This document shows, in pieces, positions 33,230 to 59,386 of a stretch of 64,000 nucleotides of DNA (position 1 is its first letter; every line of letters starts with the position of its first letter). Origin of the DNA: a bacterium (GTDB taxonomy: Bacteria; UBA8248); the NCBI GenBank assembly GCA_965213625.1, contig CBDBZU010000004.1, positions 3,232,001 to 3,296,000 of the forward strand, given 5' to 3'. The position numbers and the translations under genes were made by a program. Below the pieces are notes generated by a model. It worked only from the letters and a program-made list of their open reading frames with translations. It was not told the DNA's origin and made no database searches.

Positions 33230-34153
33230 CTACGCTGGTGGTTCGCCTACCTGCTGCCTCGACCATTCTTCAAACATTTGCAGCAATTCCGTCTGGTCCG
33301 AATCCGGCCCATATTTTTGTAAACCAAGACCATAAATCTGCCGGGCATGATTCAAATAAAACGCCGTCACACCGTTTTCTCGCGCCAAATCGCTCCCCAT
33401 CGAGAGGTCCTTGTGCATCAATCCCGTGGAAAAACCACAGGTGAAGTCCCTCGGGAGGAGAAAGCGGGGCCATTTATCTTTTGTAGCACTATTCATGCCT
33501 GAACCACCGTTGAAGACTTGAAGCGCCTTTTCAGGGTCTAGGCCTAACTTCGATGCCAAGACCATGGCCTCCATAGAAGCGAGCAGGCTCGTCGCTGAGA
33601 GAAAATTGTTTACACATTTCATTGCATGCCCTGATTCTGGTGTTTCATCAATATGCACAATAGTTTTACCCATTGTCTCGAAAATGGGCATCGCCGCATC
33701 CACAATCTCTTTTGGACCACCAGGCATGATGGCCAGAGTGGCGGCTTCCGCCCCAACGACGCCGCCCGAGACCGGCGCACCGATCAAGTGCAAACCTTTT
33801 CCTGCTACGCGAGATGCAAGCGTACTAGTTCTCGTGGGATAGGAGGAACTCATATCAATTATCAATTTCCCCTTGTCCAGATGCGCGGAAATTCCATCCG
33901 GTCCATCGACTACTGCATCCACGATATCGCTATCAGGTAACATCGTGATGACAACATCGGCGCGCTTTGCCAGATCGGCCAAGCTTTCAGCCGCTTGCAC
34001 CCCATCATCCCTCAAGCACTCGACATTGTCCGGCCTTGTGTCAAAGGCCACGACCGCGTAGTCACCACGTCTCAAATTTTTCGACATGGGTGTTCCCATC
34101 TTCCCGATTCCGACAAAACCGATAGTAACGTTTCCTGGTTCTAAAATTTTCAT
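33230..34153 (-). CDS. 3-hydroxyisobutyrate dehydrogenase family NAD(P) oxidoreductase
   Basis: GFVGIGKMG, ITMLP, APVSGG, KCVNN, KDL. Confidence 0.9.
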   Translation of the reverse strand: MKILEPGNVTIGFVGIGKMGTPMSKNLRRGDYAVVAFDTRPDNVECLRDDGVQAAESLADLAKRADVVITMLPDSDIVDAVVDGPDGISAHLDKGKLIIDMSSSYPTRTSTLASRVAGKGLHLIGAPVSGGVVGAEAATLAIMPGGPKEIVDAAMPIFETMGKTIVHIDETPESGHAMKCVNNFLSATSLLASMEAMVLASKLGLDPEKALQVFNGGSGMNSATKDKWPRFLLPRDFTCGFSTGLMHKDLSMGSDLARENGVTAFYLNHARQIYGLGLQKYGPDSDQTELLQMFEEWSRQQVGEPPA

Positions 34154-34250
34154 AGTTTCCTCGCTATCTGAACAAACTGTTTTTTAAAAAACACCACCTA
34201 TCGTTTAGTTGTTTTTGATTCGCTCTAAGGTTTTTGTCAATCCCCATTTG

Positions 34251-34286
34251 GAGTGGTAAGCTTGAATTTAATTTCAAGCTTCACTC
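34251..34286. promoter_or_regulatory. Palindromic operator-like site between divergent genes
   Basis: aagcttgaa-tttaat-ttcaagctt with outer gagtg/cactc arms. Confidence 0.45.
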
Positions 34287-34334
34287 ATCATACCGCCCAA
34301 TTAATTTTCCATATGCCGTGCAAGGAGAAACAAA

Positions 34335-35060
34335 ATGGCGCCGATTTCGGCGGATGATGTTGTACTGTATTTGGAGGAAAATCCTGGTTTTTTCATAGAA
34401 CATCCAGACTCACTTCGCCAAAGTGGTCTTCTGACACAAGACAGTACTTCAGCAAAAGTCCTCAACTTACGGGATAAACTTTTTGACCGCTTAAAAGGCG
34501 AAAGAGAGGATTTGGTGCGACTTCTCGACGAAACGATAGAACTCGTTCGCCAAAATGAGCTAATCGAAAATGACTTTGTCGCTATTGAACAACTTTTATT
34601 TGAACAAGCTCCCTCACTGGCAAGCCTTACGGAAATCGTAAAAAATATCGAATCGCGCTTTGGGATTGAATACGCAGGTTTTTTGCTTTTAGAACCCGTC
34701 GATGGCATTCCAGTGCTCGCCGCAAAATCTGACGAATCATGCCGCATCCGCCCACTTGGTAAAATTGAAGAAGAACTCGTACCAATGGATGGAGGAGTTG
34801 TACTCAAGGGTAAATTAGAGGGCTGTGGGGGTCCGCTGTTTCCGAAAGCTTTGAGCGAAAGTATCAAATCAACCGCTATTGTAAGTTTAGAAATTCATGA
34901 GAAAAAAATCGGTTTTCTCATATTGGGTTCCAAAGATCCCGAGCGATATCAAGAGGGTATGGCGACCCACCTCCTCAGGCGTCTTGCAATGCGTTTGGCT
35001 TTGGGAATTTCCATCTTTCAGCGATTCAACAATGGAAAAACGGCGCAAACGATTTCTTGA
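34335..35060 (+). CDS. DUF484 family (GAF-like) protein
   Basis: VVLYLEENPGFFIEHP, LGSKDPERYQEGMATHLL. Confidence 0.8.
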   Translation: MAPISADDVVLYLEENPGFFIEHPDSLRQSGLLTQDSTSAKVLNLRDKLFDRLKGEREDLVRLLDETIELVRQNELIENDFVAIEQLLFEQAPSLASLTEIVKNIESRFGIEYAGFLLLEPVDGIPVLAAKSDESCRIRPLGKIEEELVPMDGGVVLKGKLEGCGGPLFPKALSESIKSTAIVSLEIHEKKIGFLILGSKDPERYQEGMATHLLRRLAMRLALGISIFQRFNNGKTAQTIS

Positions 35061-35107
35061 AGTAAAGCACTCGTTTAGCAATAGTCACATCGTCTGCTTA
35101 TGAGTAA

Positions 35108-36499
35108 TCAGGCTGGAACTCCCTCCGCTTTGGCCGCAAGTTCCATTACCTCGGAAATACTGCTCAGGTTTTCTAAATTCCTGACCCGCTCGATGATCAA
35201 ACCACCCGTTTCCTTTTCGAGCACTGGGGCAGTCATCACGTAGAATCGTTCGATCAACTCACCCCACGTCAACGGATTTCGAGAATCCCCCTTGGGATAA
35301 TCCTGATGCGCTTCGAAAACTCCGCGATCAGTCTCAATTTCGACATTCGCTTGCCATTTATCCGGAAATTCCTTTTCCATTTCGGCATCACCGTAGCATT
35401 CAATCTTCTTGATAATTGAGGAGTAAACCTGAGAGCGGAGGAAATCGTCTGCATACTCATCTAGCCCAGCAGCGCGCCTAAGAATCGCAACAGCCACGGC
35501 ATACTGAAGGCTGAATTGAGCATCAACGATATTTTGCGGATTCGTTTTCATATCATAGGGTTCGATGACTACCATTACGCTCGTCTCCGGAACCCGTACT
35601 TTTACTCGTCTGATTTCCTCTGGCTGAATATCATGCTTTTTGCAAACATCGATTGTGGCGTCAATCGAAGCGTGGTTATAACGACAACAAGCGTAGGGCT
35701 TTATCGCGCTCTCACAGATTTCCCAATACTCACCGAAGTGCTCCACCACATACTCAGGTGTATAGTCATCACTATGGCCATGCAAAAATCCCGTTTTCCC
35801 GCCCAAAATATCTTCCGGTCCCGTATAACCTTCCTGGGCTAAATAGGCGGCGATGATACCGCTATGCGCCGCCCATCCCGGGTGAAACCTCTTCGTCCAA
35901 GCGCCGTTATCGAGATATTGCATCGAACCAGCCGCCTGGCTGCCCGAGATGCCCATTGCATTTGAAGTGGCCTCGACCGAAAGCCCCAAAAGCTTCGATG
36001 CCGTGATCGAGGAGGCGAAAGTGCCGCATGTTCCCGTGGGATGGAAACCACGCTCATAGTGGCTCGTTGGATTCACGGCATTTCCGATGCGATTGGTGAC
36101 TTCATATCCTGCTACGATAGCGGCGATTACTCGCTTCGGATCAGGCTGATGCGCCTCGGCAACGGCTAACGTGCTTGGCATGACGCTGACTGCAGGATGC
36201 AGGCTTGAGCGCGTTGTCACATCATCCATTTCCGTGGCGTGGCTCACCCCCCCGTTCACCAAAGCGGCATGAGGGGCATCAGTTTTCAAACCCGAGCCTA
36301 TGATGGTGCAAGGCCCACCATGGGGAGCGCGCTTTTGGGCAAAATTATGAAACACACGAGAACTGGCCGCCTCCAATGCTCTCAATGTAACGCCGAGGTG
36401 ATCGAGCAAAAAATACTTTGCGCGGTCCCTGGCCTCATCGGACAGAGAACCATAAGTAATGGCGTGAACGTGTTCGACAAGCATTCGGCTGATATTCAT
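35108..36499 (-). CDS. MmgE/PrpD family protein
   Basis: LLDHLGV, EMDDV..HP, GFHPT, KPYACCRYNH, QFSLQY, KGDSRNPLT. Confidence 0.9.
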   Translation of the reverse strand: MNISRMLVEHVHAITYGSLSDEARDRAKYFLLDHLGVTLRALEAASSRVFHNFAQKRAPHGGPCTIIGSGLKTDAPHAALVNGGVSHATEMDDVTTRSSLHPAVSVMPSTLAVAEAHQPDPKRVIAAIVAGYEVTNRIGNAVNPTSHYERGFHPTGTCGTFASSITASKLLGLSVEATSNAMGISGSQAAGSMQYLDNGAWTKRFHPGWAAHSGIIAAYLAQEGYTGPEDILGGKTGFLHGHSDDYTPEYVVEHFGEYWEICESAIKPYACCRYNHASIDATIDVCKKHDIQPEEIRRVKVRVPETSVMVVIEPYDMKTNPQNIVDAQFSLQYAVAVAILRRAAGLDEYADDFLRSQVYSSIIKKIECYGDAEMEKEFPDKWQANVEIETDRGVFEAHQDYPKGDSRNPLTWGELIERFYVMTAPVLEKETGGLIIERVRNLENLSSISEVMELAAKAEGVPA

Positions 36500-36733
36500 T
36501 CGAACTTCTCCTTCCACTAGAAGCCAGTTTGTGATTTTGAGACTTTGGCCCACTGCTGTACAGGCAATTTTTACACTTCAAGCAATAATACCAGAACTTA
36601 TTGTATTCTGCCTCAGCGCAAGAGTGGATAAACCGCTCCAAGCCTTTGGGGCAAGGATGAATTTGTCATATGGTATTGCTTGCAGATACAATTCTCCATC
36701 ACTTGTACACTCTCATCATTTTGGAGACAGAAC

Positions 36734-38844: not shown

Positions 38845-39090
38845 CACCGCCTCCCGAGGATGCCGCTCAAAGTCCGGCCACGTTATACACCACTCGCTTC
38901 GCCTGAGGCCACAGGGCGTGGAGAGGTTCCGCGCTGGAGCCACTGCGAGGAAATGCGGGTAAATGCGTGGTTCTTAAAAAAATTTTAATTCGATAAATTT
39001 CGATAATTACATAAAGTATTACTTTAGGTATATTTGATAAACTATTAAATGAATGTATAATGCCATGATAGTTTCGTCCATAAACTTTTT

Positions 39091-39128
39091 CGTAAATTTA
39101 TCCAATTTTATCGATATTTTCATGAATT
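39091..39128 (-). repeat. Right copy of 38-bp long-range inverted repeat
   Basis: Reverse complement reads aattcatgaaaatatcgataaaattggataaatttacg; matches 16474-16511 at 34/38. Confidence 0.8.
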
Positions 39129-39770
39129 CAAAACCCGGCGCACGCACGGCGCACGGGGGAGATTTCACCGCCTTTGCGCCTTCGTCCATCTCGCAACGCC
39201 TGCCATGGATTCGCCGAATCATCGCTTCACCTTTATCAATCCACAGTCGAGGTATTGATTTCACCGCCCAGTCCGTCCCTATGAATGCGGCTGTGAGGAA
39301 ACCAGATTCCTCCCGTCCAGCGTGCCCCTATGAAACGGCTGCGAAGAATCAATTCATACACCGGGCCTGCCCCTATGAAAGCGGCTACGAGTGGTTTGAA
39401 TGCGCCACCCTCTACGCCCGCATGAAATTCTCGCGCATCTCCAGGGAGGCGGGATAGCGCCAATTGCGGGGAAATGCGTGTCCGATTGATTCCGTCGTCA
39501 TGGCGGCGGTGGTCAATTTCGACCGAGTATGACTTTTTCAACAACCTCAATGAGGGGAGGTTTCCGACCCATGCCCCAGAAACCACCACTTTTACGGCAA
39601 ATACTGATGGCAATCGACTGGTTGACCGTAAAGCGATGATTCTCGCCCACCAGTCCTTCGCCAGCGCCACTTCACCCTTGAGCACGGAATTGTGAAGTGG
39701 AAAACCTCGTGTCTGGCCAGTGATCCGGCGAAGCATTTTACTGATTCTTCGATCATTCAGCAGATTTTAA

Positions 39771-41114
39771 TCAGCCGGCCCCTCCCACCGCATGCTCGAA
39801 AACCATCATCGGCTCAAAATCCGCAAGCTTAATTTGAGGCAACGAAACGCCCGCATACGCTCCCGCCGCATGGAATTTCTCGAGCAGCTCCGTATCACTC
39901 AGCGGCTTTCCCGGCATCCCGCGGGCGGCGCCGCAGAACCCGGCCGCGGTGCGGCCATCGCTCAGGGTCAGCGTGAGGCGGATGCTTTCGGGATATTTCC
40001 CGCGCATCTCCTCGGTGGAAAGGTCCATCGCGCGCTTTACACTCACCCGCGCCATGAGGGCCTCCATCTCCGGGCTGACCCCGGCTCCGGGTTCGAGATC
40101 CTCAAACCGGACCTTGCCGTTAAGCGCGGCGCAGGCCAGCGCATATGGCAGGCTGAACTGCATCTCCTGCGGGGTGGCCGGATTCGGAAAGACGAGACTC
40201 CCGTAGACGAGCTCCGGTACTTCGGCGTGTATCCCGGCCACCTCATCAGCACTTGCGCCGAGTTCCGCCATGAGTCCGTTCATCTGTTCGATGGCCGAAA
40301 GCGCTGCCGAGCAGACCGGATTCGTCTTGAACAAGAGGCCCGGGTCGCACAGGCGCCAGCGCAGGCCGATGGTTTTGAGTTCGGACTCGACGGCTTCGCC
40401 CCGGTTCAGCAGCTTCAGGAAACCCCGGTTGTCCTCGAACGCGGCTTCCGGTCCTGTAAGCCCGGCCTGCGCAGCCCGGGCGAACGTAACGGCCCGACGC
40501 GCGGTCTCGCCGACGAGCATCGGCTTGGCGTCCGTACCGAGCACGGCCTTTCCCCCGCCGGAAGCGGCTGCCGCCAGGCCGATAGCGCTCGTCATCGCGT
40601 CCTCATCGAGCCCCAGCAGGCATCCGGCGGCGACGGTCGCGCCCGTGAGGCCGAAGGTGATCGTGCTCCACCAGCCATGGAAGTAGTGGTCGTGTGTGCA
40701 AAGATCGGCGAGGACGTACGCCACCTCGGAACCCGCGACGAAGGCGCGGCGAAGCGAATCAGCGCCCGTTTCGAGTTCCTGCGCCAGGGCCATGGCGGCG
40801 GGCAGCACCACCGCCGAGCCGTGCATGATCCCAGTGTAGGAGGTATCGTCGAAATCCCAGACGTGCGCCGCCATTCCGTTGATGAGCGCCGCGGCTTCCG
40901 GGTCCGCTCTCCCGCCGGTCGCCAGCGTCGCCTTCCCTTCCCCGCGCGTAGTCACTGCAGCCAGGGCGCGCACGGATGGATGCGCGCCCCCCGCGAGCAT
41001 GACGCCCAGGGTGTCGAGCATGGCCCTGTTTGCAACCGTCCTGACTGCGGAATCAACCCGTTCCAGACCGCAGGCGAACCTCGCGAACCGCCGGGCTATT
41101 GTGGGTGTTTTCAT
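39771..41114 (-). CDS. MmgE/PrpD family protein
   Basis: MLDTLGVMLAG, DFDDT..H, QFSLPY, RGMPGKPLS; starts about 20 bp after the grdB stop. Confidence 0.9.
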   Translation of the reverse strand: MKTPTIARRFARFACGLERVDSAVRTVANRAMLDTLGVMLAGGAHPSVRALAAVTTRGEGKATLATGGRADPEAAALINGMAAHVWDFDDTSYTGIMHGSAVVLPAAMALAQELETGADSLRRAFVAGSEVAYVLADLCTHDHYFHGWWSTITFGLTGATVAAGCLLGLDEDAMTSAIGLAAAASGGGKAVLGTDAKPMLVGETARRAVTFARAAQAGLTGPEAAFEDNRGFLKLLNRGEAVESELKTIGLRWRLCDPGLLFKTNPVCSAALSAIEQMNGLMAELGASADEVAGIHAEVPELVYGSLVFPNPATPQEMQFSLPYALACAALNGKVRFEDLEPGAGVSPEMEALMARVSVKRAMDLSTEEMRGKYPESIRLTLTLSDGRTAAGFCGAARGMPGKPLSDTELLEKFHAAGAYAGVSLPQIKLADFEPMMVFEHAVGGAG

Positions 41115-41135
41115 GTGGTGACGACACCCACCCCT

Positions 41136-42452
41136 CTAGTACTCGAACACCGTGGGGCCGTCCACTTTTTCGGTCAGCGCTGAAGCGGCGGCGCGTGCTG
41201 CGCCCAGGCGCCATTCACGCTCGGCCTCGGGCGTCCGGGAGGGGTCGCCGAATGGATGATGAAAATGCCCGGCGCGGTTGTTGACGATGCGGTTGACCCC
41301 GATGTCACGCGCCACGTCCGGCAGGCATGTGACGATGACGGTGGGGATGCCCTCCCGCTCGAGCGCTCTCGCCAGCGCAGCCCCGCTGCGCGTGCCGGTG
41401 CCTCACGTTGCGGGGAGCACGACGCCCTCCACCCCGGTCTTTTTGAGTTCCGCGGCCCAGGCGCGGCCGATGCCGTCCATCTCGGCGAAGGCGCCGCCGT
41501 TCCCGCAGGTGCTGTGGAAATCATCGTGGAGCTCGGCGATCTCGCCCTCCTCCGCAAGCCGCCGGAAGGCGTCCACGGCGAGCATGCGGTCCGGCTCCTC
41601 GTTCACGAACACGGTGTTGAAGCCCCCATGAATCGAGATGAACGTGCCGCCCGGCAGGGCGTCTTTCCCCTTAAAGGAGTACGTGGCCCAGTTCTCATTT
41701 CTCGAGCCGGCGAAGCGGTCCGGGTTGCCGGGGGGCACCATGCCGCCTTCGGATACGATGGCGATGCGCGCTTTTTTAAGATCGGCGATCGCCTCGGGCG
41801 GCGCAATCTCTTCCAGAACGGGAACGTCGAGTTCCGTCTCGTAGGGCTCGCCCTTGATTTTTCGTAAAACCATGTCGACGGCGCGCTGCGAAGTCGGTAG
41901 TTCGGCGACTTCGTTGTAGCGGACCCCCCGAGGCAGGTATCCCTCCTCGGCCGCATTGCCGATCTCCTCGCCCCGGGCAAGCTTGAGTCCAAGGCGGGCG
42001 GCGGCTTCCAGGGCTTCCTCCATCCCGACGGCCGAATCTGCGGCGGGTACGGTGTGGACACCGGTACCGGCAGCGGGAAAGCCCGGATTCTCGGGGTGCA
42101 TGGCAGTGACGACGGGAACGCTCGCCTCATGCGCTGCGCGGCATACGGCGGCGCAGGCCAGCCCGAAGCGCCCGGCGTTGAAAGCGGGCCCGGCGAGAAC
42201 GAGATCAGGAGAATATTCGAGAATCCTAGCGAGAGCCTCTGCGGCGCAGTCTTCCTCGTTTTCGGCGATAAGGCCGTCCCCCGCAAAGACGGTGCCGACC
42301 ACTTCGGCGTCTTCCCCCAGAATTTTATCGAGCAAAACGCCGGGGCCAACCGGGCCTGTCTGCGCAGATACAGGATGATCGCTCTTCTCCTCGCCCCCGA
42401 CGCCTGCAAAGAACTGGTTCAAGTAGTGAACGACCCGAAGTTTACCGCTCAT
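41136..42452 (-). CDS. grdB: Glycine/sarcosine/betaine reductase selenoprotein B-like (Sec at UGA 41403-41405, codon 350; 438 aa)
   Basis: RVVHYLNQFFAGVGGEE, AGPAFNAGRFG, IHGGF; read-through gives PAT-U-GTGTRSGAALARALEREGIP...HPFGDP...PTVFEY* at full GrdB length. Confidence 0.93.
41375..41391 (-). promoter_or_regulatory. Putative bacterial SECIS hairpin of grdB
   Basis: GCGCAGC-GGG-GCTGCGC; G-containing loop begins 19 nt after the UGA. Confidence 0.7.
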
Positions 42453-42547
42453 AGCCTGGCCTCCTGTATGAATTCATTCAATTCAATATTTCAGTGTACA
42501 TGGTGAACACCCGTTTGGGCTAATATCTCCTTCACAGGCTCCCGTCC

Positions 42548-43831
42548 TCAATAATCCTTGCCCACCATGTTGTTGATGTCCTTCGCCCACTCGCTGGCGT
42601 AGTAGTCGCTGTCGGCCAGGGTGAAGGCCTCGCGGACGTTGTGTCTCTTGCCGTTGTAGAACTCGACGATTTCCGAGCCGATGACCCGCTCCACCGCCGG
42701 GGCGGCGATGCGCTCCCCCTGCATTCCCTTGGATACAATGGCGTCGGCCTCGGGCACGTGAAAGACGAGCGGGAACTCGCCTGAGCCCGGCCGGCCCACC
42801 TCGTAGATTATCGGAACGGCGCTCACGCCCATCTGCTCGAGCGCCTGGACGGTGAGCCAGTAGTCCACCGTGGAGTTGCCGCCGCCCTCAAAGGCGAGAA
42901 CCGCGCCTTCGGCCTTCAGGAGCGCGGCCAGCTTGGCCACGTATTGCGCCGAGCGCTCCTTGAGCGCCTGGTTGTCGTGGTGGCCGCGCGTGATGATCAT
43001 GCCGGCGAAATTAAGGTCCACACCGTGGCGGCGGTATAGCTCGTAGATGAGCGGTAAGTTGCAGTGCAGGTAGGTCGGCACCTTCTGCTGCGTCTTGTAG
43101 TTCGCCCCCACCACCGCGCCGTCGAGCATCTCGTTCGGGTGAATGAGGGTGGGAAGCGAATCCCCCAGATTCTTGCCGTACATGAAGGTCTGCACCATAG
43201 ACGCCTGGTGCATCACCTGATCGACAAAGACAACCCGGGGCAAATCGGGCGCGACGTCGCCGATCTCGAACGTCTCGACGCTCACAGGTTTGAGTTCCGC
43301 CGTGTGCGCGGCCAGCCGGGACGCGATTTTGAGCGTCGCCAGGCGCACGGCGTCGTCATGCGCTTCGTTCGAGGCGCCGGCCAAAGGCTCGTAGCAGGCG
43401 ACGAGGTTCGCGGTCTCTGAATTCGTGCAGTGCACGGCCCCTGGACCGGACATATCGATGATGCCTTCGCGAAAGCTCATGATGCCCGTCATGGGCCCCA
43501 GGAAATGGGTGGTGCTGATGACGCACATACCGGCCAGCTTGTGGGTGCGGCCCTGGCCGGCCGTCTTCGCCGGACCGAGGAATCCCGGAAAAGCGCAGGA
43601 GCGACCGCTTACCTTGTAGAGAGGCTCCACCGCGTCCAGCACGTTGGTGATCCGCACCGAATCGCCCGGCATGGCGGCGTCAAAGCGCACGTCCTCGAGA
43701 CCGCCGTCTTCGAGCGCAAGCTCGCGCAACTCATCGGCATCCACGGTGAGCGTACCTTCTTTGTACTCAAAGCGCGCACCGATGATGATTTTCGATACGG
43801 GGAATAACCCCATCTCCAGTCGCATGGACAT
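42548..43831 (-). CDS. grdE: Glycine/sarcosine/betaine reductase component B proprotein (GrdE/GrdG/GrdI-like)
   Basis: MRLEMG, PGDSVRI, EGIIDMSGPGA, PTLIHPNEMLDGAVV, KERSA, EGGGN. Confidence 0.88.
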   Translation of the reverse strand: MSMRLEMGLFPVSKIIIGARFEYKEGTLTVDADELRELALEDGGLEDVRFDAAMPGDSVRITNVLDAVEPLYKVSGRSCAFPGFLGPAKTAGQGRTHKLAGMCVISTTHFLGPMTGIMSFREGIIDMSGPGAVHCTNSETANLVACYEPLAGASNEAHDDAVRLATLKIASRLAAHTAELKPVSVETFEIGDVAPDLPRVVFVDQVMHQASMVQTFMYGKNLGDSLPTLIHPNEMLDGAVVGANYKTQQKVPTYLHCNLPLIYELYRRHGVDLNFAGMIITRGHHDNQALKERSAQYVAKLAALLKAEGAVLAFEGGGNSTVDYWLTVQALEQMGVSAVPIIYEVGRPGSGEFPLVFHVPEADAIVSKGMQGERIAAPAVERVIGSEIVEFYNGKRHNVREAFTLADSDYYASEWAKDINNMVGKDY

Positions 43832-43842
43832 CGTCGCCTCCC

Positions 43843-44295
43843 CTATCCGGCCGTGCGCATCGAGGCCAGGTCGCTTTCTATCTGCTCCAGATCGAGCACC
43901 ATTTCCATCATGAGGAGCTTTTCGGCGTACAGATTCTCTGGAACCTGGGCGCGCACCTTCTCTTCTAGAATGTGAAAAACGGGGAGTCCCAACGAGACTC
44001 CCGCCAGGGGCCCGGCCCAGCTGGGGTCCCCGGTGGTCAGCGTTTCGGCTGCGAGCCGAAGGCCTTCACCGGGCATTCCCAACACCACCATCAGGTTCTC
44101 CGACCCCACTTCATCGGCAATCGATTTGATGGCGGCCTGGTTCTCCAGGTCCATGGCGCCAGCGGAGGTTCAGACGAAACACTCCGTCTTCTGGAACACG
44201 ACCTCCGCACCCGCCGCCTCAATACACTCGGCAATCAGCGGACCGGGTACGCCGTCGCGCTCACCCAGCGCGATCACCTTCTTGCCTTTGAACAT
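43843..44295 (-). CDS. grdA: Glycine/sarcosine/betaine reductase selenoprotein A (Sec at UGA 44170-44172, codon 42; 150 aa)
   Basis: Manual translation [19 protein letters not shown]...[17 protein letters not shown]...[16 protein letters not shown]; CxxU motif. The ORF track shows only the part after the UGA. Confidence 0.95.
44136..44149 (-). promoter_or_regulatory. Putative bacterial SECIS hairpin of grdA
   Basis: CCTGG-AGAA-CCAGG, extendable; loop begins 26 nt after the UGA with G at position 2. Confidence 0.55.
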
Positions 44296-44328
44296 GTGTG
44301 TCCTCCACTTGCCTGAAAAACGAACGAA

Positions 44329-45750
44329 TCACGCTTCTATCAGCACCGAAGCCCCGTCGGCCTGCTGGGACATCCGGCCTAAAAACAGACTCCCTTTGGC
44401 GAGGATCATTGTACTCGCAAGGCTCCCCGCCCGCATCCGCTCCAGCGCGTGTCCGAGAAAGGGAACGCCTGCGGGAATATGCCCCTGCGTCGGCGCGAAT
44501 CCGGGCATCCCGTGCGCCTCGATGAAAGCCGGAATCTCCTCGCGGGCGATCTCCCCGCCCATCACCGCCATGGCGGCCAGCATCTTGTAATTCGTAGCCG
44601 CCACGTCTCCCGCCCCCGCGGGCAGCATGACTTCTGGATTATGGAGTTCGACGGCGTACTTATCGACGCTGGTCAGCTTGCGCCCGGCGCGGGCCAGCGG
44701 GTCGCGCACCATAGCCTCCGCCAGCCCTTGCGGCGTGGATGGCCTGCCCGCCGCGTGGCGTCCGGCTATCTCGAGATTCACGCGAGGGCCGTCCCCTGAA
44801 TTTTTCGTGAGAAAAAACGCGACCCCACCCAGTACGTCTTCCAGTACGGGCATTCCCTTTTCCAGATGGTAGTACGCCTTCATCCCGAGCTTCGCCATCG
44901 AACCGCCCCCGACGACGACGGCGTTCTCGACGACACCCGCCTGAATAAGCGCCGCCGCATGCACCAGAGCGTACACCGGCGCCGCGCAGAAAGACTTCAC
45001 GTCCACGCCGGCCGCATTGGCGCAGCCCGCCATCTCGGCGATCGCCTTTGCAAGATTGCCGCCGCCGCGATTGTAGCGATCTCCAATAGCTTCCTCCGAA
45101 CAACTGATCACGTACTCTACCTGTTCGGGCGCGATGCCCACCCCCACGAGCAACCGCCTGAGCGCATAAGCGCCGCTCGCCTTGGCCGAGAGGTTTTCCA
45201 ACAATATTCGGGCGTCCAGGGATTCATCGGCGTCATGATCGCGGCGTACGCACCCGATCATGTCCCCGTCCTGAAACAGCGGCAGGGCCTCTCCTCGCTC
45301 GATGCGTTCAATAATGTCTTCTTGTTTGTAATCCTTCGGAGGATTTTCTTTTTCGAGAAGCGCGTCGGCGGATTCAGAACCCACGCCGCGCGGCCCATCA
45401 CGCTCCTTATCGAGCATTATCAACCCGAACTGATCCGCCGCTTCGAGCAAGGCATAGAAAGAATCCTGCGGGAGGATTTCCCCGAATTGGCTCTCAAGCG
45501 AAGCGCCTGCGGGGGAGTTCTCGTACCACGGAGTTGGAATTTCGTTCAGATTTTCGGGCTGCAGATTGCCGATGAACGCCTGGTTCGGCGGGTAGCCGAC
45601 CACTTCATCAAAAGAGCGCAGGTCGTTGAACGAGTCGCCCGGCGCCTGATTGTTCCTGAAAGCCTCGCGCCAGGGCTTCGAGCCGTAGCGAACCAGATCT
45701 GGAACATGCACGAGAACGTTCGCAGCAGCACGCAGGTACGCCATCATCAC
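44329..45750 (-). CDS. grdC: Glycine/sarcosine/betaine reductase component C, FabH-like subunit
   Basis: LVHVPDL, LLENLSAKASG, CSEEAIGDRYNRGGGNLAKAIAE, FCAAP, ELHNPE, GFAPTQGHIP, KGSLFLGRM. Confidence 0.92.
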   Translation of the reverse strand: MMMAYLRAAANVLVHVPDLVRYGSKPWREAFRNNQAPGDSFNDLRSFDEVVGYPPNQAFIGNLQPENLNEIPTPWYENSPAGASLESQFGEILPQDSFYALLEAADQFGLIMLDKERDGPRGVGSESADALLEKENPPKDYKQEDIIERIERGEALPLFQDGDMIGCVRRDHDADESLDARILLENLSAKASGAYALRRLLVGVGIAPEQVEYVISCSEEAIGDRYNRGGGNLAKAIAEMAGCANAAGVDVKSFCAAPVYALVHAAALIQAGVVENAVVVGGGSMAKLGMKAYYHLEKGMPVLEDVLGGVAFFLTKNSGDGPRVNLEIAGRHAAGRPSTPQGLAEAMVRDPLARAGRKLTSVDKYAVELHNPEVMLPAGAGDVAATNYKMLAAMAVMGGEIAREEIPAFIEAHGMPGFAPTQGHIPAGVPFLGHALERMRAGSLASTMILAKGSLFLGRMSQQADGASVLIEA

Positions 45751-45841
45751 ACCCGCCCAATAACGAGGAAGAAAAGTTTACTCAGGAATTTGTACTCGAA
45801 ATGAAACGCCGCCGCCATGCCTGTTGGTCGCCATCACCGCC

Positions 45842-46627
45842 CTAGCCCGCGGTATAGCCGCCGTCGGCGTAGAGGATGTGGCCCGTGTAAAAGTCAGACG
45901 CCCGCGACGCGAGGAACAGGAGCGGCCCGGCCAGATCCTCGGGCTCGCCCAGCCTGCCCTTCGGTATCCGGCTCACGATGTTCTCGCGCGTCTTCACCGC
46001 CTTTGGCGCGTCAGTGAACATCCAGTCCGTAAGCACCGAGCGGAAGACGGTCGGCCCGACCGCGTTAACGGTGATTCCCGTCGGGCCCAGTTCGCAGGCC
46101 AGCGCCTTCGTGATGCCGTCGACCGCCGCCTTGGAGGCGCAATAGGCGGTATAGCCCGCGGGGTGGCCGAGAATCCCGCGCGTCGAGGAGACGAGGACGA
46201 TCTTGCCGCCCTCTCCCTGCGCCTTCATCTGCCGCGTCGCGGCGCGCGCCAGAAGCCACGACTGCGTGACGTTCGCGTCCATCACGTCGGCGAACGCATC
46301 GGGCGCCATCTCCTCGATCATCCCCACCCTGTTGATGCCCGACGCCACCACCAGAATGTCGAGGCGGCCATGGGTCTCGACGGCTTTCTCCACCATGGCG
46401 TCGGCCGCCGCTTCAGATTCCGGGCGCGCGTTCACCGTGGCGACCTCGGCTCCAAGCTCGCGGCACTCGCCCGCGACGGCGTCGAGCGCGTCCGTGGTGC
46501 CGGCTGTAAGCGTGAGGCGGCAACCGGCCCCGGCCAGGGTCCGCGCGGCCACCGCGCCGAGTGCGCCCGATGCGCCTGTGATGAGCGCGGAGCGTCCGCT
46601 GACGTCGAATAATTCCGAGGGTCTCAT
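45842..46627 (-). CDS. SDR family oxidoreductase (gluconate 5-dehydrogenase-like)
   Basis: LFDVSGRSALITGASGALG, YCASK, DGGYTA. Confidence 0.9.
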   Translation of the reverse strand: MRPSELFDVSGRSALITGASGALGAVAARTLAGAGCRLTLTAGTTDALDAVAGECRELGAEVATVNARPESEAAADAMVEKAVETHGRLDILVVASGINRVGMIEEMAPDAFADVMDANVTQSWLLARAATRQMKAQGEGGKIVLVSSTRGILGHPAGYTAYCASKAAVDGITKALACELGPTGITVNAVGPTVFRSVLTDWMFTDAPKAVKTRENIVSRIPKGRLGEPEDLAGPLLFLASRASDFYTGHILYADGGYTAG

Positions 46628-46778
46628 ATCGTGTTGTCCTGATGGGGGATCACGAGCAGCGTCCCGCAGGCGTGAAAGAAGAATACGTATGCCCCATGCT
46701 AGGTATCAAGCGGGTGTGGTGTCAAGAATAGCGAGAGGATGTCCATTTCAGGGGTCAGACTCGATCGATTGAGGTTTT

Positions 46779-46868
46779 GTAGGGACAGGTCGCGACCTGT
46801 CCTTCTGGCTTTTCTTCCTATCGCCAGGAAAATCGCGATTGTAGGAACAGGCCCCCGCGCCTGTCCTG
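46779..46868. repeat. Pair of GTAG-type REP palindromes
   Basis: gtagggacaggtcgcgacctgtccttc and gtaggaacaggcccccgcgcctgtcctg. Confidence 0.65.
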
Positions 46869-46990
46869 GCGAGGGTGGCCGCGGTAGCCGGACAAACCAA
46901 ATGCGAATCAGACAATTGGCCCTCAAATACGAGTGGACACGTAGGCCCACCCCTGAAAAATAATTTTCGAGATTGCCGACAGAACGCGCG

Positions 46991-48304
46991 TCAAACGACC
47001 TCGACCCAGGTCTTCATGCCAGACGCCTGGTGGGCCAGGGTGTGGCAGTGGATCAGCCATTTGCCGGGGTTGTCGAACACGCAGAGGACGTCCCGGCTCC
47101 GGCGCGGATCGATCAGGGTGGTGTCGCGGTAATGGCCGTGCGCGCCGTCCTCGCCGACCTCGTGGAAGTGATGGCCGTGGATGTGGATGCCGTGCGGGAA
47201 AACGGTATCGTTCTTCATGGTGATCAGCGCCGTCTCGCCTCGGGCGAATCGCCGCCAGGGCGTCTTTGGCATGCCGGAGTGGCCGTTCAAGGCCCAGAAA
47301 TCCCCGCCGCGCATCATGCCCATCATGCCCATCCCGCTCATCGCGCCGCCCTGCATGGCGAGCGTAAGCCGCCGCGCCTTTCTGCGGTCCGGCGACGGGA
47401 TGTCCACCGGCGGCAGGGGCGCGATAGGGACGTCGATGGGCGCGGGGTTGACGCCCTGCGCCGCTATTTTGCCGAGTTCATATGCTCCGCCCCGCGTCGC
47501 CATGGCGAAGGTGACCGGCTCGGCGACGTCGAGGATGACGTCGGTCCGCTGTGCGGGCGCCAGCACCAGCTCGCCCAGGGGCTCAGGCTTAGCCAGCGGC
47601 ATCCCGTCATGCGCCACGATCATGCCGGCGCCGCCGATCCGCACCCGGAAAATCCGCGCCGTCGCCGTGTTGATCAGCCGCAGGCGAACCCGGTCCCCGC
47701 GCCGCACCTCCTCCCGGGAGAGGAGCGCCCGGGCGAAGTTGCCGAGCCGCCCCTCATGGGAGAAGTCGTGGCGGTTGCCGAAATTCGGGTCCAACTCGCC
47801 GCTGCGCGTCAGACGCCAGTCGTCGAGTACCACCGTGATGTCGTGGTCGACGCGCGGGGGGTCGCGTTCCTCGACGATCAGTGGGCCGTAGAGTCCCTTC
47901 GCCACCTGCTCCCAGGAACGCTCATGCGAGTGGTACCAGTAGGTGCCGGGGTGAGGTACGTCGAAAACGTAGTCGAACGCGCCGCCCGGCTTTACCGCCG
48001 CCTGGGTGAGGCCGGGAACGCCGTCCATCGCGTTGTCGATGTGGATGCCGTGCCAGTGAACGGCGGAGGCGCTGTCGAGCCCGTTCTCAAAGGAGATGGC
48101 GACCCGGCCGCCTTGTCGGGCGCGTATCTCGGGACCGGGAGATGAGCCGTTGAACCCGAGCATGCGCGTCTCGCCTTGCCCGTCCGGCAGGAGGCGGACC
48201 GTGACGGGTTCGGCCCTGAGACGGAAACCCGATGGCGCCGCCCACCCGGTCGCGGGGGTCAGCGCCGTCGCCGCCAACGCCAGCAGAAAATCCCTTCGGT
48301 TCAT
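46991..48304 (-). CDS. Multicopper oxidase with Tat signal
   Basis: NRRDFL Tat motif; HWHG, WYHSH, HGIHIHGH, HCHTLAHQASGM copper ligands. Confidence 0.93.
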   Translation of the reverse strand: MNRRDFLLALAATALTPATGWAAPSGFRLRAEPVTVRLLPDGQGETRMLGFNGSSPGPEIRARQGGRVAISFENGLDSASAVHWHGIHIDNAMDGVPGLTQAAVKPGGAFDYVFDVPHPGTYWYHSHERSWEQVAKGLYGPLIVEERDPPRVDHDITVVLDDWRLTRSGELDPNFGNRHDFSHEGRLGNFARALLSREEVRRGDRVRLRLINTATARIFRVRIGGAGMIVAHDGMPLAKPEPLGELVLAPAQRTDVILDVAEPVTFAMATRGGAYELGKIAAQGVNPAPIDVPIAPLPPVDIPSPDRRKARRLTLAMQGGAMSGMGMMGMMRGGDFWALNGHSGMPKTPWRRFARGETALITMKNDTVFPHGIHIHGHHFHEVGEDGAHGHYRDTTLIDPRRSRDVLCVFDNPGKWLIHCHTLAHQASGMKTWVEVV

Positions 48305-48541: not shown

Positions 48542-49942
48542 TTAGACGGGACTCGGTTCCCGCACCGGCTCCGCCAGCATGGCCGTGAGGGAGGCGACGT
48601 CCTCCACCTCATCCAGCTGCCGCCAGGCGTCCCAGGCGGCCTGGGCTTTTTCTTCGGTGAGGCCGGCGGCGCATTCCAGGAACTTTTCCCGGAGTTCGAG
48701 ATTGGTGATCGGGTTTTCGATGTGTCCGCGCGCGCGGGGGAAAAAGCGGGTGAGTTCGCGCCCGTCTTTCAGTTTCACCCAGACCCCGGCCGCTTCGGTT
48801 TCGGGGTCCTCACGCGCCATGTCTTCATCGAGCTCGAACGCAACGCGCTTTTGGAGAGCGGCTATCTCTGGCCGCTGTACGCTGTCTTCCTCGAACTGGC
48901 GGATGCCGACCTTGCGGTCCACGAGGGCGGAGGCGATGCAGAACGGCATGGAGAATTTTCCCTCCAGGCCCGTGGTCGCCTCCTTGTAGCGCAGCACTTT
49001 GAGCGTCATGGTCGAGGCGCGCGCGCCCAGGGCCGCCACGTCCGAGACCGCGATGTCTTCGCTCTTCACCAGGTCGAGCATGGCGTCGATGCCCGGATGC
49101 GTCATCGCGCAGCAGGGGTGGAGCTTCACGCAGACGCCCTCCTCAACATCCCAAGGCCGCCCCCACGTGCCGACCGCGCTCTCCCAGTCCGCGAATTCAT
49201 GCGCGGTGGGTCCGATTTCCTCTGCCGCCATGGCCGACGTGAAGCCTGTCTCCAGCGTATCCGCCGCCGCCGTGAAGCCGTCTTCGGCCAGTTTCGCCGC
49301 GACGAGTCCCGCCCGTGCGGACTGGCCCGCGTGAAATGGCTTCGTCATCGTGCCGAAGTTCGACACCAGCCCCGCCGAGCCGCTCGCCCCCAGGCTCAAT
49401 GCGTTTCGCGTCTGCTCCTCATCCAGTTCCAGCAGATACGCGCTTGCGCCCGCCACGCCGACCGAGCCGAGCGTGGCCGTGGCGTGAAAGCCCCGGCGGT
49501 AGTGTTTGGGGTTCACTGCGCGGCCCAGGACGTGCAAGAGCTCGAAACCGATCGTGTAGGCCTCGAGAACCTTTGCGCCCCCGATTCCCCTTTCCTCCGC
49601 CAGTGCGATGAGGGCAGGAACCAGGGTGACGCTCGGGTGACCCAGCATCACGAAATCCACGTCGTCATAATCAAGCGCATGGCCCGCCGTTCCGTTCACA
49701 AAGGCGGCCCAGGAGGCGCTCGTACGCTCCTCCGTGCCGATCAGGCGCGCTGCGGGAACGCCACCCTCCGAGACCGCCAGCCGGTGCGCCAGCCGCGCGC
49801 AGTCATCGTCCCGGCCCGCCAGATTCACGCCCAGCGTATCGAGCACGGCGTTTCGCGCCTGCGCGCGTGCCGCCTCGCCGATGTCAGAGGCGTGAACCGC
49901 CGCGATTCGCTTCGCCAGTTCCCTGGTGGCCTGATATGTCAT
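48542..49942 (-). CDS. MmgE/PrpD family protein
   Basis: VLDTLGV, HALDYDDV..GHP, GFHAT, TKPFHAG, KLHPCC..H, KFSMPF. Confidence 0.92.
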   Translation of the reverse strand: MTYQATRELAKRIAAVHASDIGEAARAQARNAVLDTLGVNLAGRDDDCARLAHRLAVSEGGVPAARLIGTEERTSASWAAFVNGTAGHALDYDDVDFVMLGHPSVTLVPALIALAEERGIGGAKVLEAYTIGFELLHVLGRAVNPKHYRRGFHATATLGSVGVAGASAYLLELDEEQTRNALSLGASGSAGLVSNFGTMTKPFHAGQSARAGLVAAKLAEDGFTAAADTLETGFTSAMAAEEIGPTAHEFADWESAVGTWGRPWDVEEGVCVKLHPCCAMTHPGIDAMLDLVKSEDIAVSDVAALGARASTMTLKVLRYKEATTGLEGKFSMPFCIASALVDRKVGIRQFEEDSVQRPEIAALQKRVAFELDEDMAREDPETEAAGVWVKLKDGRELTRFFPRARGHIENPITNLELREKFLECAAGLTEEKAQAAWDAWRQLDEVEDVASLTAMLAEPVREPSPV

Positions 49943-50029: not shown

Positions 50030-51664
50030 TCAGATGCCGCGCGGACGCTCGGCGGGTTCTTTTGCCTTGCGCCCCTTGCCCACGGGTTTACGCATATCTT
50101 CACTGAGCTTGAACTTGTTCACCGCGTTCACGAAGGCCTTGGCGCCCGCCTCGACGGTGTCGGGGCTCGTGGCGTGGCCCGCTATCTGCAACCCTTCGTC
50201 GAACTCCACCATCATGTTCACCTCGGCGAGCGCGTCGCGCCCCCGCGTGACGGCGTTCACCGAAAAATCCGCCAGGCGGCATTCGATGCCCACGACCCGG
50301 CAGATGGCGTTGATGGCCGCGTCCACGGGGCCGTTGCCCTGGCTTACGTCTGAGAACTCCTCCTCACCCTGCCGGATGCGCACCGTGGCCGTGGAGGCCG
50401 GCTGCGTGCCTGTGGAGGACGTGACCTGGAGGAACTCGAGGTTGTAGTAGTTCTCCCCGCCCTCGGCGCGGTTTTGCTGCAACAGCGCAATCAGGTCCTC
50501 GTCGTAGACCTCTTTTTTCTTGTCCGCGAGATCGATGAAGCGCGGGTAGATGGCCGTAATGTCCTCGCGCGACATCTTGAAGCCGAGCTGATCGTAGCGC
50601 TTTCGCAAGCCCGCGCGGCCCGAGTGCTTGCCGAGCACGAGCGTGTTCGAGGGCCTGCCCACCGACTTGGGCGTCATGATCTCATAGGTGATGGCCTTCG
50701 ATATCACCCCGTGCTGGTGGATGCCCGCTTCGTGCGCGAAGGCGTTCTTGCCCACCACCGCCTTGTTCGGCTGTACGGGCACGCCCGTCATGGAGGTCAG
50801 GAGCCTGCTCGTGGGGTAGATCTCGCGTGTCTTGATCCCCGATTTGTAGTTCAGCTCATCGCTGCGAGTGGAGATGGCCATCACGAACTCCTCGAGCGAG
50901 GCGTTGCCCGCCCGCTCACCGATGCCGTTGATGGTGCATTCCACCTGGCGCACGCCGGATTCGATGGCCACGATGCTGTTCGCCACCGCGAGGCCCAGGT
51001 CGTCGTGGCAGTGCGCGCTGAATACCACGTTGTCGTAACTGGGCACCTTTTCGAAAATGTGCTCCCAGAAGCGCTTGAACTCGCTCGGGATGATGTAGCC
51101 CACCGTGTCGGGGAGGTTGATGGTGGTCGCCCCCTCCTCGATAGCGATTTTCACCGTCTCGGCCAGGAAATCCCAGTCCGATCGCGTCGCGTCCTCAGCG
51201 CTCCACTCCACGTCCTTGCAAAGGCTTCGCGCATGGCGCACCGAGGCGGCAATCTCCTTCAGGAGCGCTGCGCGCGTCATCTTGAGCTTGTGCTTCAGGT
51301 GAATGTCCGACGTCGCGATGAAGGTGTGGATTCTGGGTTTCTTCGCGTGGCGCACCGCCTCCCAGCAGCGGTCGATGTCCTCACGCGCGGAGCGCGAAAG
51401 ACCGGCGACGACCGTCTTGGTCACCGCCTTGGCCACGTCGCGCACCGATTCGAACTCATCGTTCGACGCTATGGGAAACCCGGCTTCGATGATATCCACG
51501 CCCAGTTTTTCGAGCTGTAGCGCCATCTGCACTTTCTGGAAATGATCCATACTGCAGCCGGGCGACTGCTCCCCGTCCCTGAGCGTGGTGTCGAAAATAC
51601 GGATTCTGTTCGAGGCTCTGCCTCTGGATGGTTTCTTTCGTATTGCCGTGGCTTGTTTCGCCAT
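50030..51664 (-). CDS. leuA: 2-isopropylmalate synthase
   Basis: FDTTLRDGEQSPG, HCHDDLG, GIGERAGN, AHEAGIHQHG, GNGPVDA regulatory domain. Confidence 0.96.
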   Translation of the reverse strand: MAKQATAIRKKPSRGRASNRIRIFDTTLRDGEQSPGCSMDHFQKVQMALQLEKLGVDIIEAGFPIASNDEFESVRDVAKAVTKTVVAGLSRSAREDIDRCWEAVRHAKKPRIHTFIATSDIHLKHKLKMTRAALLKEIAASVRHARSLCKDVEWSAEDATRSDWDFLAETVKIAIEEGATTINLPDTVGYIIPSEFKRFWEHIFEKVPSYDNVVFSAHCHDDLGLAVANSIVAIESGVRQVECTINGIGERAGNASLEEFVMAISTRSDELNYKSGIKTREIYPTSRLLTSMTGVPVQPNKAVVGKNAFAHEAGIHQHGVISKAITYEIMTPKSVGRPSNTLVLGKHSGRAGLRKRYDQLGFKMSREDITAIYPRFIDLADKKKEVYDEDLIALLQQNRAEGGENYYNLEFLQVTSSTGTQPASTATVRIRQGEEEFSDVSQGNGPVDAAINAICRVVGIECRLADFSVNAVTRGRDALAEVNMMVEFDEGLQIAGHATSPDTVEAGAKAFVNAVNKFKLSEDMRKPVGKGRKAKEPAERPRGI

Positions 51665-52116
51665 GGGTTTCAGGCTCCTTAGGAATTTGTTCGTGAAGGT
51701 GCGCCTTGAGCGGAACGCCGGGTATTAGAGAGTGGATGGGCGCTTGCGCGCAAGACTGGTGAACGCGCTGGTTTCCTAAGAAGCCAGTGGATCGCGGGGC
51801 GTCTTGAACACGCCCCAGGAACTCCTGAGATCCTGATGCCTCATCGAATCAATACTCCATTTCGCTCAATCAAAGGCGAGGCGCATGGTTAAACGGGCGG
51901 AATCCACGCAGGTCCTCGCAAATACAATACGATCTTATGGGTCAAGCGCGAGCCGAGGTCAAGTCCCATGTTTCGTTTTTTTCGATTTCCGGGGTCAACG
52001 CCCCGAACGCCAAGACTGAATTACACTTGAAACCGCCTCCTATTGGGGCTGTTGAAAAAGCCCCGGTGAGCGATTTTGGTTGCTTGCGCGCTTTTGAAGT
52101 TCACTCCCCCCTTGAG

Positions 52117-59306: not shown

Positions 59307-59386
59307 CCCCGCTTCATCTGGCGCAATCCTAAGTTTTCGAGTAAAACAAATTTTCGATTTTCTTCATCACGCTTGAGGGAGCCCCC

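Follow-up and report, generated by a model that had tools for sequence, protein, structure and literature searches.

A Grd-type reductase operon with two selenoproteins and an altered protein B in bacteria of the lineage UBA8248

We analyzed a 64,000-nucleotide stretch of bacterial DNA from the lineage UBA8248 (assembly GCA_965213625.1, contig CBDBZU010000004.1, positions 3,232,001 to 3,296,000; hereafter the window, to which all plain coordinates refer) and, within it, a string of six minus-strand genes at 39771-46627, four of which are related to the genes for glycine reductase (Grd). The string is headed by a gene for a short-chain dehydrogenase/reductase (SDR) family oxidoreductase (45842-46627; PF13561, PF00106). 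Next come grdC (44329-45750; NF040746, PF19364, PF08545, PF00108), which encodes the beta subunit of protein C, a thiolase/FabH-like protein with an invariant cysteine, Cys255, and grdA (43843-44295; NF040748, PF04723), which encodes the 150-amino acid (aa) selenoprotein A with the CxxU motif C39-F-V-U42. The two subunits of protein B are encoded by a grdE-like gene that we denote grdE' (42548-43831; alpha-type subunit, 427 aa; PF09338) and a grdB-like gene that we denote grdB' (41136-42452; selenoprotein B-type subunit, 438 aa; TIGR01918, PF07355). An MmgE/PrpD-family gene (39771-41114; PF03972, PF19305) follows 21 nt downstream of grdB'. These coordinates and family matches agree with the gene order given in a preliminary description of this DNA. 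Intergenic gaps in the string are 11-95 nt, and promoter-like sites are present at 46696-46725, by its SDR end. The core proteins match their Pfam families at 397 bits (PF07355, cutoff 22), 206 bits (PF04723), and 355 bits (PF09338, cutoff 22), and two of them pass equivalog cutoffs, namely, GrdC (NF040746, 587 bits against 450) and GrdA (NF040748, 207 bits against 130). An Rfam scan of 39000-47500 yielded no match.

Both grdA and grdB' contain an in-frame TGA, at 44170-44172 (codon 42) and 41403-41405 (codon 350, in the context PAT-U-GTG), respectively. Unless the UGA is read through, the grdA frame ends at 41 aa and the grdB' frame at 349 aa, and PF04723 covers GrdA over its full length only with readthrough, in line with the preliminary description, according to which the two proteins reach family length only if UGA is read as selenocysteine (Sec, U). 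A search of the host genome (4.15 Mb, 4 contigs, 96.6% complete) for the Sec machinery, chosen beforehand as the test that could overturn this reading, recovered tRNA-Sec, SelA (564 bits), SelB (388 bits), and SelD (333 bits). The selD gene (C4:1518852-1519814) itself carries one in-frame TGA, so that selenophosphate synthetase is probably a selenoprotein as well. Among the genomes of the host phylum, 36 of 51 contain GrdB-like matches, 53 in total; 51 of these have exactly one in-frame TGA (one of them, a partial match in genome G048, also has a TAA), and the remaining two cover only the N-terminal part, stopping short of codon 350. The Sec column of GrdA is occupied by U in all 8 homologs compared, and U350 of GrdB' aligns with U in all homologs compared. 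Furthermore, identity of GrdB' within its clade is higher across the 88 residues after the UGA than across the 349 residues before it (94/81, 93/81, 72/59, 75/55, and 58/45%), with a range of 52-94% for the post-UGA part that always exceeds the value for the preceding part. A dead 3' remnant would not behave in this manner. Judging from these comparisons, both UGA codons are decoded as Sec, and the host appears fully able to decode them.

The putative selenocysteine insertion sequence (SECIS) hairpin of grdB' (41375-41391, minus strand) consists of a 7-bp stem with a GGN loop and starts 12 nt past the UGA. All 112 cells of the stem are paired across 16 distinct homologs, with covariation at pair 18-34 (GC/AU) and pair 21-31 (UA/CG/UG). 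None of 500 shuffles matched the observed pairing percentage or the covariation score, a test in which related sequences can beat every shuffle; slid controls were 6-54% paired. The slid controls together with coupled synonymous and non-synonymous changes argue for a real stem. The hairpin in grdA (44134-44152, minus strand; CCUGG-AGAA-CCAGG and 2 extra pairs) is a weaker candidate, with 86.8% of 91 cells paired in 13 homologs and a covariation score matched by 156 of the 500 shuffles. When folded alone, neither stretch is unusual (z = -0.82 and -0.98). Thus, of the hairpins proposed in the preliminary description to follow each UGA, the one in grdB' stands, whereas that in grdA, although conserved, does not covary more than the shuffles do. 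The notion that the genes are decaying or silent relics, that is, nonsense-interrupted pseudogenes or a disused operon, draws on the behavior of gene callers, which stop at the TGA, on database entries of 349 aa, and on our finding no RNA data among 24 runs. It clashes with the presence of TGA at the Sec-homologous codon in every homolog that reaches that codon, the better conserved post-UGA part, the covarying grdB' stem, the complete Sec machinery, and the four frames intact in 30 genomes (see below), and we consider it extremely improbable.

For comparison, we used 80 named loci from genome contigs and 20 larger stretches from the host phylum. In classical GrdE, the Asn|Cys pair is, as we take it, the site of self-cleavage, with the cysteine becoming a pyruvoyl group; a 2001 study by Bednarski, to judge from its title, reportedly traced the pyruvoyl group to this cysteine. 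The classical rows of the alignment read GN|CVSACDKN at this site, whereas the clade of the window protein reads (G/S)(A/G)N-Y-(K/R). The window GrdE' has Asn244-Tyr245-Lys246 (Tyr codon, 43097-43099), with no Cys, Ser, or Thr at the site, and tyrosine replaces the pyruvoyl-precursor cysteine in all 18 N-Y rows (17 loci and the window). The partner of a verified GrdH (locus L125) has Phe at the same position. In a tree of 57 rows built by a quick method, the 10 N-Y rows form a clade (Shimodaira-Hasegawa-like approximate likelihood ratio test [SH-aLRT], 96), and a split supported at 97 separates them from the N-C rows and the GrdH partner. Scores of GrdE' are far under the cutoffs of the models for GrdG (NF040793, 258 against 780), FarE (127 against 675), and PrdA (26 against 700).

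A phmmer search with GrdE' against 1.84 billion representative sequences returned 1100 relatives at E <= 0.001, 236 of these at E <= 1e-30. In a fast, rough alignment of the best 150 relatives with a length of at least 330 aa (146 proteins), 27 have N-Y, 65 have Tyr at the site, and 6 have N-C; the representatives are clustered at 50% identity, so that heavily sampled classical enzymes collapse. Even allowing for this clustering, GrdE-like forms with Tyr at the site appear to be many. Because Tyr rather than Cys occupies the site in most of the PF09338 representatives near GrdE', much of the family would seem to be functionally unexplored. A sequence search of the PDB found no relative of GrdE' or GrdB'. 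In one Dehalococcoidia locus (L076:6075-8802), a tandem pair of GrdE-like genes, whose products read F-N-G in the cleavage columns, precedes grdB of the UGTGTRSG type (see below), grdC, and grdA; the neighbors of this locus encode a major facilitator superfamily transporter, a pyridine-nucleotide disulphide oxidoreductase, and an amidohydrolase.

The alteration in GrdE' co-occurs with one in GrdB'. The motif at Sec is UGTGTRSG, compared to UGTCTRCG (UxxCxxC) in the classical proteins, that is, the cysteines of UxxCxxC are lost. Among 101 GrdB rows, 78 have UGTCTRCG, 14 have UGTGTRSG (all host-family loci and three Dehalococcoidia), 4 have UGSGTRSG (a paralog in three same-genus genomes, and two Thermodesulfobacteriota), 3 have UGTGTRCG, and 2 are singletons. 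The clade is, accordingly, not confined to the host lineage and is represented also in some Dehalococcoidia and Thermodesulfobacteriota. A role of the UxxCxxC motif at the GrdB Sec is named in the part of a recent review at hand (PMC13188914), and a sequence motif for GrdB was published by Nobu et al. 2022 (PMC9751293). In the form in which an excerpt of that paper gives it, the motif matches 62 of 79 UG[TS]CTRCG rows and none of the 18 UG[TS]GTRSG rows; all six of its parts are present in the controls L135, L082, and L112, and one of the six in the window GrdB'.

GrdB' passes the broad subfamily model TIGR01918 (414 bits, cutoff 65) and scores below the equivalog cutoffs for GrdB (TIGR01917, 395 against 602), GrdF (NF040794, 412 against 800), and GrdH (NF040795, 355 against 775), as well as that for PrdB (81 against 300). 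The control proteins pass their own models, namely, GrdB of L135 (816 against 602), GrdB of L082 (674 against 602), and GrdH of L125 (796 against 775); the true GrdB of L135 reaches 722 on the GrdF model with its cutoff of 800. The GrdB tree (IQ-TREE, quick, with posterior mean site frequency [PMSF] profiles) comprised 60 rows out of 100, after removal of those more than 80% identical, some of them with long branches. The 9 UG[TS]GTRSG rows form a clade (SH-aLRT, 95) outside a 40-row clade (SH-aLRT, 100) to which the verified GrdB and GrdH belong. The tree test of the B subunits, decided upon beforehand, thus placed GrdB' and GrdE' outside the clades with verified GrdB, GrdE, GrdH, and the GrdH partner, and the altered catalytic motifs noted in the preliminary description are real and fixed across the clade. 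By these sequence measures, the B component fits no CHARACTERISED type. Two further sets of relatives were observed. P0055 is a full-length homolog of 441 aa (43% identity) and a natural Cys form: Sec is replaced by Cys, the motif reads C-G-T-S-Q-R-C, and only the second cysteine of CxxC is kept. Three short frames (L017-L019, 170-201 aa; C4:754651-755040, C4:1299266-1299661, and C4:1105001-1105303) align only with the central part of the GrdB/PrdB families (best match, PrdB with 66-84 bits against 300) and have no TGA inside the match.

The order grdC-grdA-grdE'-grdB' is kept across the host family (f1, 42 genomes with the window genome included), in 30 of the 42 genomes with GrdB' identity of 56-95% and all four frames intact in 30 genomes. 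The other three families of the phylum (9 genomes) carry other Grd types or none. An SDR gene adjoins grdC only in the closest relatives, loci L053, L054, and L074 (in the latter at L074:2944-3810, just before grdC at 3895); the blastp cluster of these SDRs has a fourth member in L073, approximately 5 kb past grdB. The PrpD gene adjoins the operon only in L054 and L074. All-against-all comparison of the flanking frames of 15 loci revealed nothing else conserved, and the Pfam content of the flanks varies from locus to locus. Given that the SDR and PrpD genes are not conserved outside the closest relatives, they are not conserved partners of the Grd system, and the conserved unit, which is clearly under purifying selection, consists of grdC-grdA-grdE'-grdB' only. 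Hence the six-gene operon of the preliminary description is retained for its four grd genes and reduced by the SDR and PrpD genes, which are local neighbors.

Variations on this layout were observed in several relatives. Inserts of 1.9-2.5 kb separate grdE' from grdB' in two loci, with a PIN-domain gene at L053:6486-9012 and a DNA-methylase-like gene at L074:7086-9001; the grd frames are intact in both. A second, paralogous operon, with the order grdA-grdC-grdE'-grdB', is present in three same-genus genomes (G029 and G035, loci L061/L062, and G032). Its GrdB' is 47% identical and has UGSGTRSG, the GrdE' site is N-Y-K, and the operon adjoins genes for an IclR regulator, TauE, and TctC/TctA carboxylate uptake.

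In classical systems, protein C has a second subunit, GrdD, a PlsX-like phosphotransacylase that releases acetyl phosphate. The search of the host genome for grdD proposed in the preliminary description was run and found the gene absent, along with ackA and pta, the strongest oddity of the system, which that description had missed. The best match to the GrdD model scores 20 bits against a cutoff of 350, tblastn gives an E value of 0.024, and there is no second PlsX/GrdD-like paralog; across the host phylum, none of the 51 genomes has GrdD at E <= 1e-10. Acetate kinase (ackA) and phosphotransacetylase (pta) have no match in the host genome or in any of the 42 genomes of the family; outside the family, ackA was detected in one genome of another family of the phylum. 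With a verified GrdD as the tblastn query (L135, 605 bits against 350), the gene was found in 54 of the 100 loci, always just after grdC, and in none of the loci from the host phylum, Dehalococcoidia, Thermodesulfobacteriota, 'delta proteobacteria', and Acetothermia. No match was obtained either in some loci of Bacillota and Synergistota, but their contigs end too early, and they were left out of the count. Whole genomes from other phyla with GrdD-less loci likewise have no GrdD above the cutoff (0 of 5; no completeness figure is available for these five). Our literature search turned up nothing that treats Grd systems without GrdD as a general phenomenon. The SDR and PrpD proteins were considered as stand-ins for GrdD and rejected, neither gene being kept beside the operon outside the closest relatives.

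The window GrdC belongs to a subtype restricted to loci that lack grdD. GrdC from 22 GrdD-less loci differs from that of 52 GrdD-linked loci at six columns, each of them invariant within either group: R225, Y226, K252, K291, H370, and A451 correspond to M, N, R, N, Q, and G, respectively. Cys255 is invariant in both groups, and one further Cys is present in 83% of the GrdD-linked group and absent from the GrdD-less group. Four loci, L112, L118, L127, and L087, have a classical B component (N|C and UxxCxxC) and the order grdE-grdB-grdC-grdA, and are also without GrdD; L112 matches the published GrdB motif, and L112, L118, and L087 lack GrdD genome-wide.

Could the window system be a regular glycine (or sarcosine) reductase, changed by no more than sequence drift, that forms acetyl phosphate and ammonia from glycine, for instance, to complete a reductive glycine pathway or to scavenge glycine? 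All four core proteins fall in Grd families, GrdA and GrdC being equivalogs, close homologs are labeled 'glycine reductase' or 'betaine reductase' in the data sources, and a sulphate reducer can live autotrophically with the help of glycine reductase (PMC7547702). This explanation nevertheless seems quite unlikely to us. With no Cys, Ser, or Thr at the cleavage site, there would be no pyruvoyl group to bind the amine; the UxxCxxC cysteines are lost and the scores are far under the GrdB, GrdF, and GrdG cutoffs; five of the six parts of the published GrdB motif fail and both trees put the clade outside the one with verified members; and GrdD, ackA, and pta are absent for making and using acetyl phosphate.

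The window system can be compared with four known ones. Clostridial glycine reductase, GrdABCDE of Peptoclostridium acidaminophilum and Acetoanaerobium sticklandii, has the same four families, the Sec codons of GrdA and GrdB, and the conserved GrdC cysteine, and in both cases thioredoxin reductase is available. It differs from the window system in having the GrdE cysteine where Tyr is found here and UGTCTRCG where UGTGTRSG is found here; moreover, the window host lacks GrdD, acetate kinase, and phosphotransacetylase, its operon has no trxA, trxB, or grdX and follows the order C-A-E-B, and it encodes an oxygen reductase. Betaine reductase (GrdH/GrdI) resembles the window system in that the alpha-type subunit also lacks the cleavage cysteine (Phe in the L125 partner, Tyr here), and both alpha subunits fit a substrate that needs no Schiff base. 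However, GrdH has UxxCxxC and belongs inside the Bacillota clade, its loci use GrdC together with GrdD, and the window protein, as given above, falls far short of the GrdH cutoff. PrdA and PrdB of D-proline reductase are distantly homologous to GrdE and GrdB, and the B-type subunit likewise contains Sec, but this enzyme works without proteins A and C and forms no thioester. The fluoroacetate reductase FarB/FarE of Cloacibacillus (Synergistota) is a Grd protein-B variant that acts on a non-amine X-CH2-COO- substrate (described in the portion of PMC10838667 at hand), a precedent indicating that the Grd family is not limited to amines. The far operon includes an antiporter gene (farA) and a radical-SAM gene (farC) and borrows GrdA, GrdC, and GrdD, whereas here grdA and grdC are in the operon; no farA- or farC-type neighbors were found in the window or in related loci. 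Taken together, the window system appears to work like a Grd reductase and to belong to the broad family, while it fails the defining features of glycine, sarcosine, betaine, fluoroacetate, and D-proline reductases. Our literature searches found no paper describing this clade; the supplementary trees of PMC9751293 may already include it without comment.

The genome of this marine host encodes a COX1 haem-copper oxidase and CtaA (haem A synthase), which supports the earlier view of the host as oxygen-using, and a thioredoxin reductase, trxB (363 bits against 343), encoded outside the operon, turned up in the genome search that had been suggested. The 'flavin monooxygenase' that had been taken as a sign of aerobic life is a luciferase-like protein (13224-14564), and no trimethylamine monooxygenase was seen near the operon. 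The NarG model gave weak matches only (best, 27 bits) and the ccoN model 42 bits, neither model being built for the enzymes expected here. Grd enzymes are the textbook ATP-yielding selenoenzymes of strict anaerobes; here, a Grd-type operon with two selenoproteins is maintained in a lineage that encodes a haem-copper oxidase, and both ends of the classical mechanism appear to be changed. Aerobes rarely keep selenoproteins, according to the same review (PMC13188914). Close homologs of the window proteins are labeled Nitrospinae, Nitrospinota, or Nitrospinaceae by their sources. Some metagenome-assembled genomes labeled Nitrospinota belong to GTDB phylum UBA8248 (proposed Spongiamicota), which is among the selenoprotein-richest bacteria, as indicated in parts of PMC13326102, PMC11920076, and PMC11373643. 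In a survey of 70 nitrifier genomes, grdHI was reported absent (PMC10753782, seen as an extract).

From the altered sites and the missing genes, we consider it fairly probable that the operon encodes a working Sec-dependent, thioredoxin-driven reductase that cleaves an X-CH2-COO- substrate without a Schiff base and whose product leaves as an acetyl thioester or acetyl-CoA (coenzyme A) rather than as acetyl phosphate. The B component (GrdE' and GrdB') would bind the substrate, and Sec350 of GrdB' would attack the alpha-carbon and displace X. With Tyr245 in GrdE' and hence no pyruvoyl group, there would be no Schiff-base activation, so that X would need to be a good leaving group on its own, as in betaine. 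The carboxymethyl group would then move to Sec42 of GrdA, where Cys39 would resolve it, and the resulting Se-S bond would be re-reduced by thioredoxin, thioredoxin reductase, and NADPH. Cys255 of GrdC would take over the two-carbon unit as an acetyl thioester. Because GrdD, Ack, and Pta are all absent, acetyl phosphate is an unlikely product, and the acetyl group would leave to CoA or by hydrolysis; transfer to CoA by the FabH-like GrdC, or hydrolysis, would be the simplest alternative exit. The system could then serve an ATP-free assimilation or scavenging route in an oxygen-respiring bacterium, and not a Stickland-type ATP-yielding step. In such a case, an operon without the glycine-binding cofactor site and the CxxC by Sec, in a host without ackA, pta, and GrdD, would extend the classical mechanism to a substrate class new to it and to an equally new exit, as acetyl-CoA or acetate, and would mean an unreported uptake of carbon from an osmolyte-like compound in marine bacteria that NCBI labels Nitrospinota.

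The preliminary description had suggested a new substrate or a new direction. The separate clade and the altered sites support the general idea, with the substrate itself a matter of inference; for the reversed direction, we found nothing. Opposite, oxidative or biosynthetic operation, in which a C-X bond would be built from an acetyl unit, has behind it only that earlier suggestion and the aerobic setting. Nothing in the sequence indicates reversal, the CxxU pair of GrdA and the thioredoxin reductase fit a reductive cycle, and Grd is called a unidirectional selenoprotein in an excerpt of PMC9751293. We regard reversed operation as highly improbable.

As to the identity of X, the Phe at the same site in the GrdH partner makes a compound with a quaternary ammonium or sulfonium group, for example, glycine betaine, the leading guess for the substrate; a halide or similar X is possible. 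More broadly, and more tentatively than for the reductase chemistry as such, the clade might belong to a widespread, unrecognized branch of reductases without pyruvoyl or GrdD that reductively split an onium osmolyte of high abundance, such as glycine betaine or dimethylsulfonioacetate, and pass the acetyl group to CoA through GrdC. Were this so, acetyl-CoA would cost one NADPH and no ATP, the system would span oxygen-respiring marine bacteria, Dehalococcoidia, and Thermodesulfobacteriota, and, with the many GrdE-like proteins from metagenomes that have Tyr at the site, the characterized glycine reductases would be a small corner of the family. Betaine uptake genes were tried as a discriminator and discarded as uninformative, with BCCT carriers in 1 of the 23 genomes of the genus and OpuAC-type binding proteins in 22 of 23, irrespective of the operon.

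Several observations weigh against the proposed Schiff-base-free cleavage with an acetyl thioester exit, or against its extension to betaine. We infer substrate and product from homology, and betaine is no more than a guess: GrdH retains UxxCxxC and falls in a different clade from GrdB', BCCT carriers are absent from 22 of the 23 genomes of the genus, and OpuAC-type proteins occur with or without the operon. Beside the operon, no transporter, regulator, or catabolic gene that could name the substrate is conserved among the 15 loci. At 96.6% completeness of the genome, the absences are not absolute, and an unrecognized protein, or PlsX, might do the job of GrdD. The GrdC groups were defined by the trait itself, are not independent, and are related by descent, so that the differences show a distinct GrdC lineage, not adaptation, and may simply mark the clade. 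Classical-looking loci without GrdD occur in Thermodesulfobacteriota, 'delta proteobacteria', and Acetothermia, which makes the absence of GrdD a wider lineage trait and not a proof of new chemistry. Finally, both trees were built by the quick method with some rows on long branches and contain no verified GrdF or GrdG, so that the model scores are the sole test against the sarcosine type.

The surroundings of the operon bear on yet another explanation, namely, that the substrate is longer or branched (an alpha-substituted propionate or similar) and that an acyl thioester on GrdC feeds the products of nearby genes for PrpD-family proteins, SDRs, CoA-transferases, and acyl-CoA dehydrogenases. 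The PrpD-family gene lies directly past grdB', and 4 of the 9 PrpD paralogs of the genome are within approximately 50 kb of the operon; a family III CoA-transferase is encoded at 24392-25726. In locus L060, the operon is flanked by genes for PrpD, 3-hydroxyacyl-CoA dehydrogenase, acyl-CoA dehydrogenase, and zinc-dependent alcohol dehydrogenase at one end and by those for two CoA-transferase subunits at the other, and the paralogous operon of L061, as described above, is next to IclR and TctC/TctA genes. Yet none of these neighbors is conserved across the clade, and GrdA and GrdC are standard equivalogs of proteins that handle carboxymethyl and acetyl groups. To our knowledge, no Grd-family enzyme that uses GrdA and GrdC handles anything other than a carboxymethyl unit. 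On balance, a longer substrate is rather unlikely, and we prefer the two-carbon X-CH2-COO- substrate proposed above.

The region around the operon looks like a neighborhood of organic-acid metabolism. The four nearby PrpD-family paralogs (35108-36553, 39771-41114, 48542-49942, and C4:3316217-3317506) are surrounded by genes for SDRs, the family III CoA-transferase, a LeuA-like synthase (50030-51664), and a 2-oxoacid dehydrogenase E1/E2 set (57205-60670). Two minus-strand frames, at 39236-39736 (166 aa) and 52101-53384 (427 aa), have no Pfam match at E <= 0.01. Farther away, the G+C content of 18000-36000 is 46-50%, compared to 58-66% on either side, and genes in this stretch encode enolase, Obg, a glutamate 5-kinase-like protein, transketolase (at the edge), and proteins with TPR and FG-GAP repeats. 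At 9675-10913, the window encodes a 412-aa protein that consists mostly of RTX calcium-binding nonapeptide repeats.

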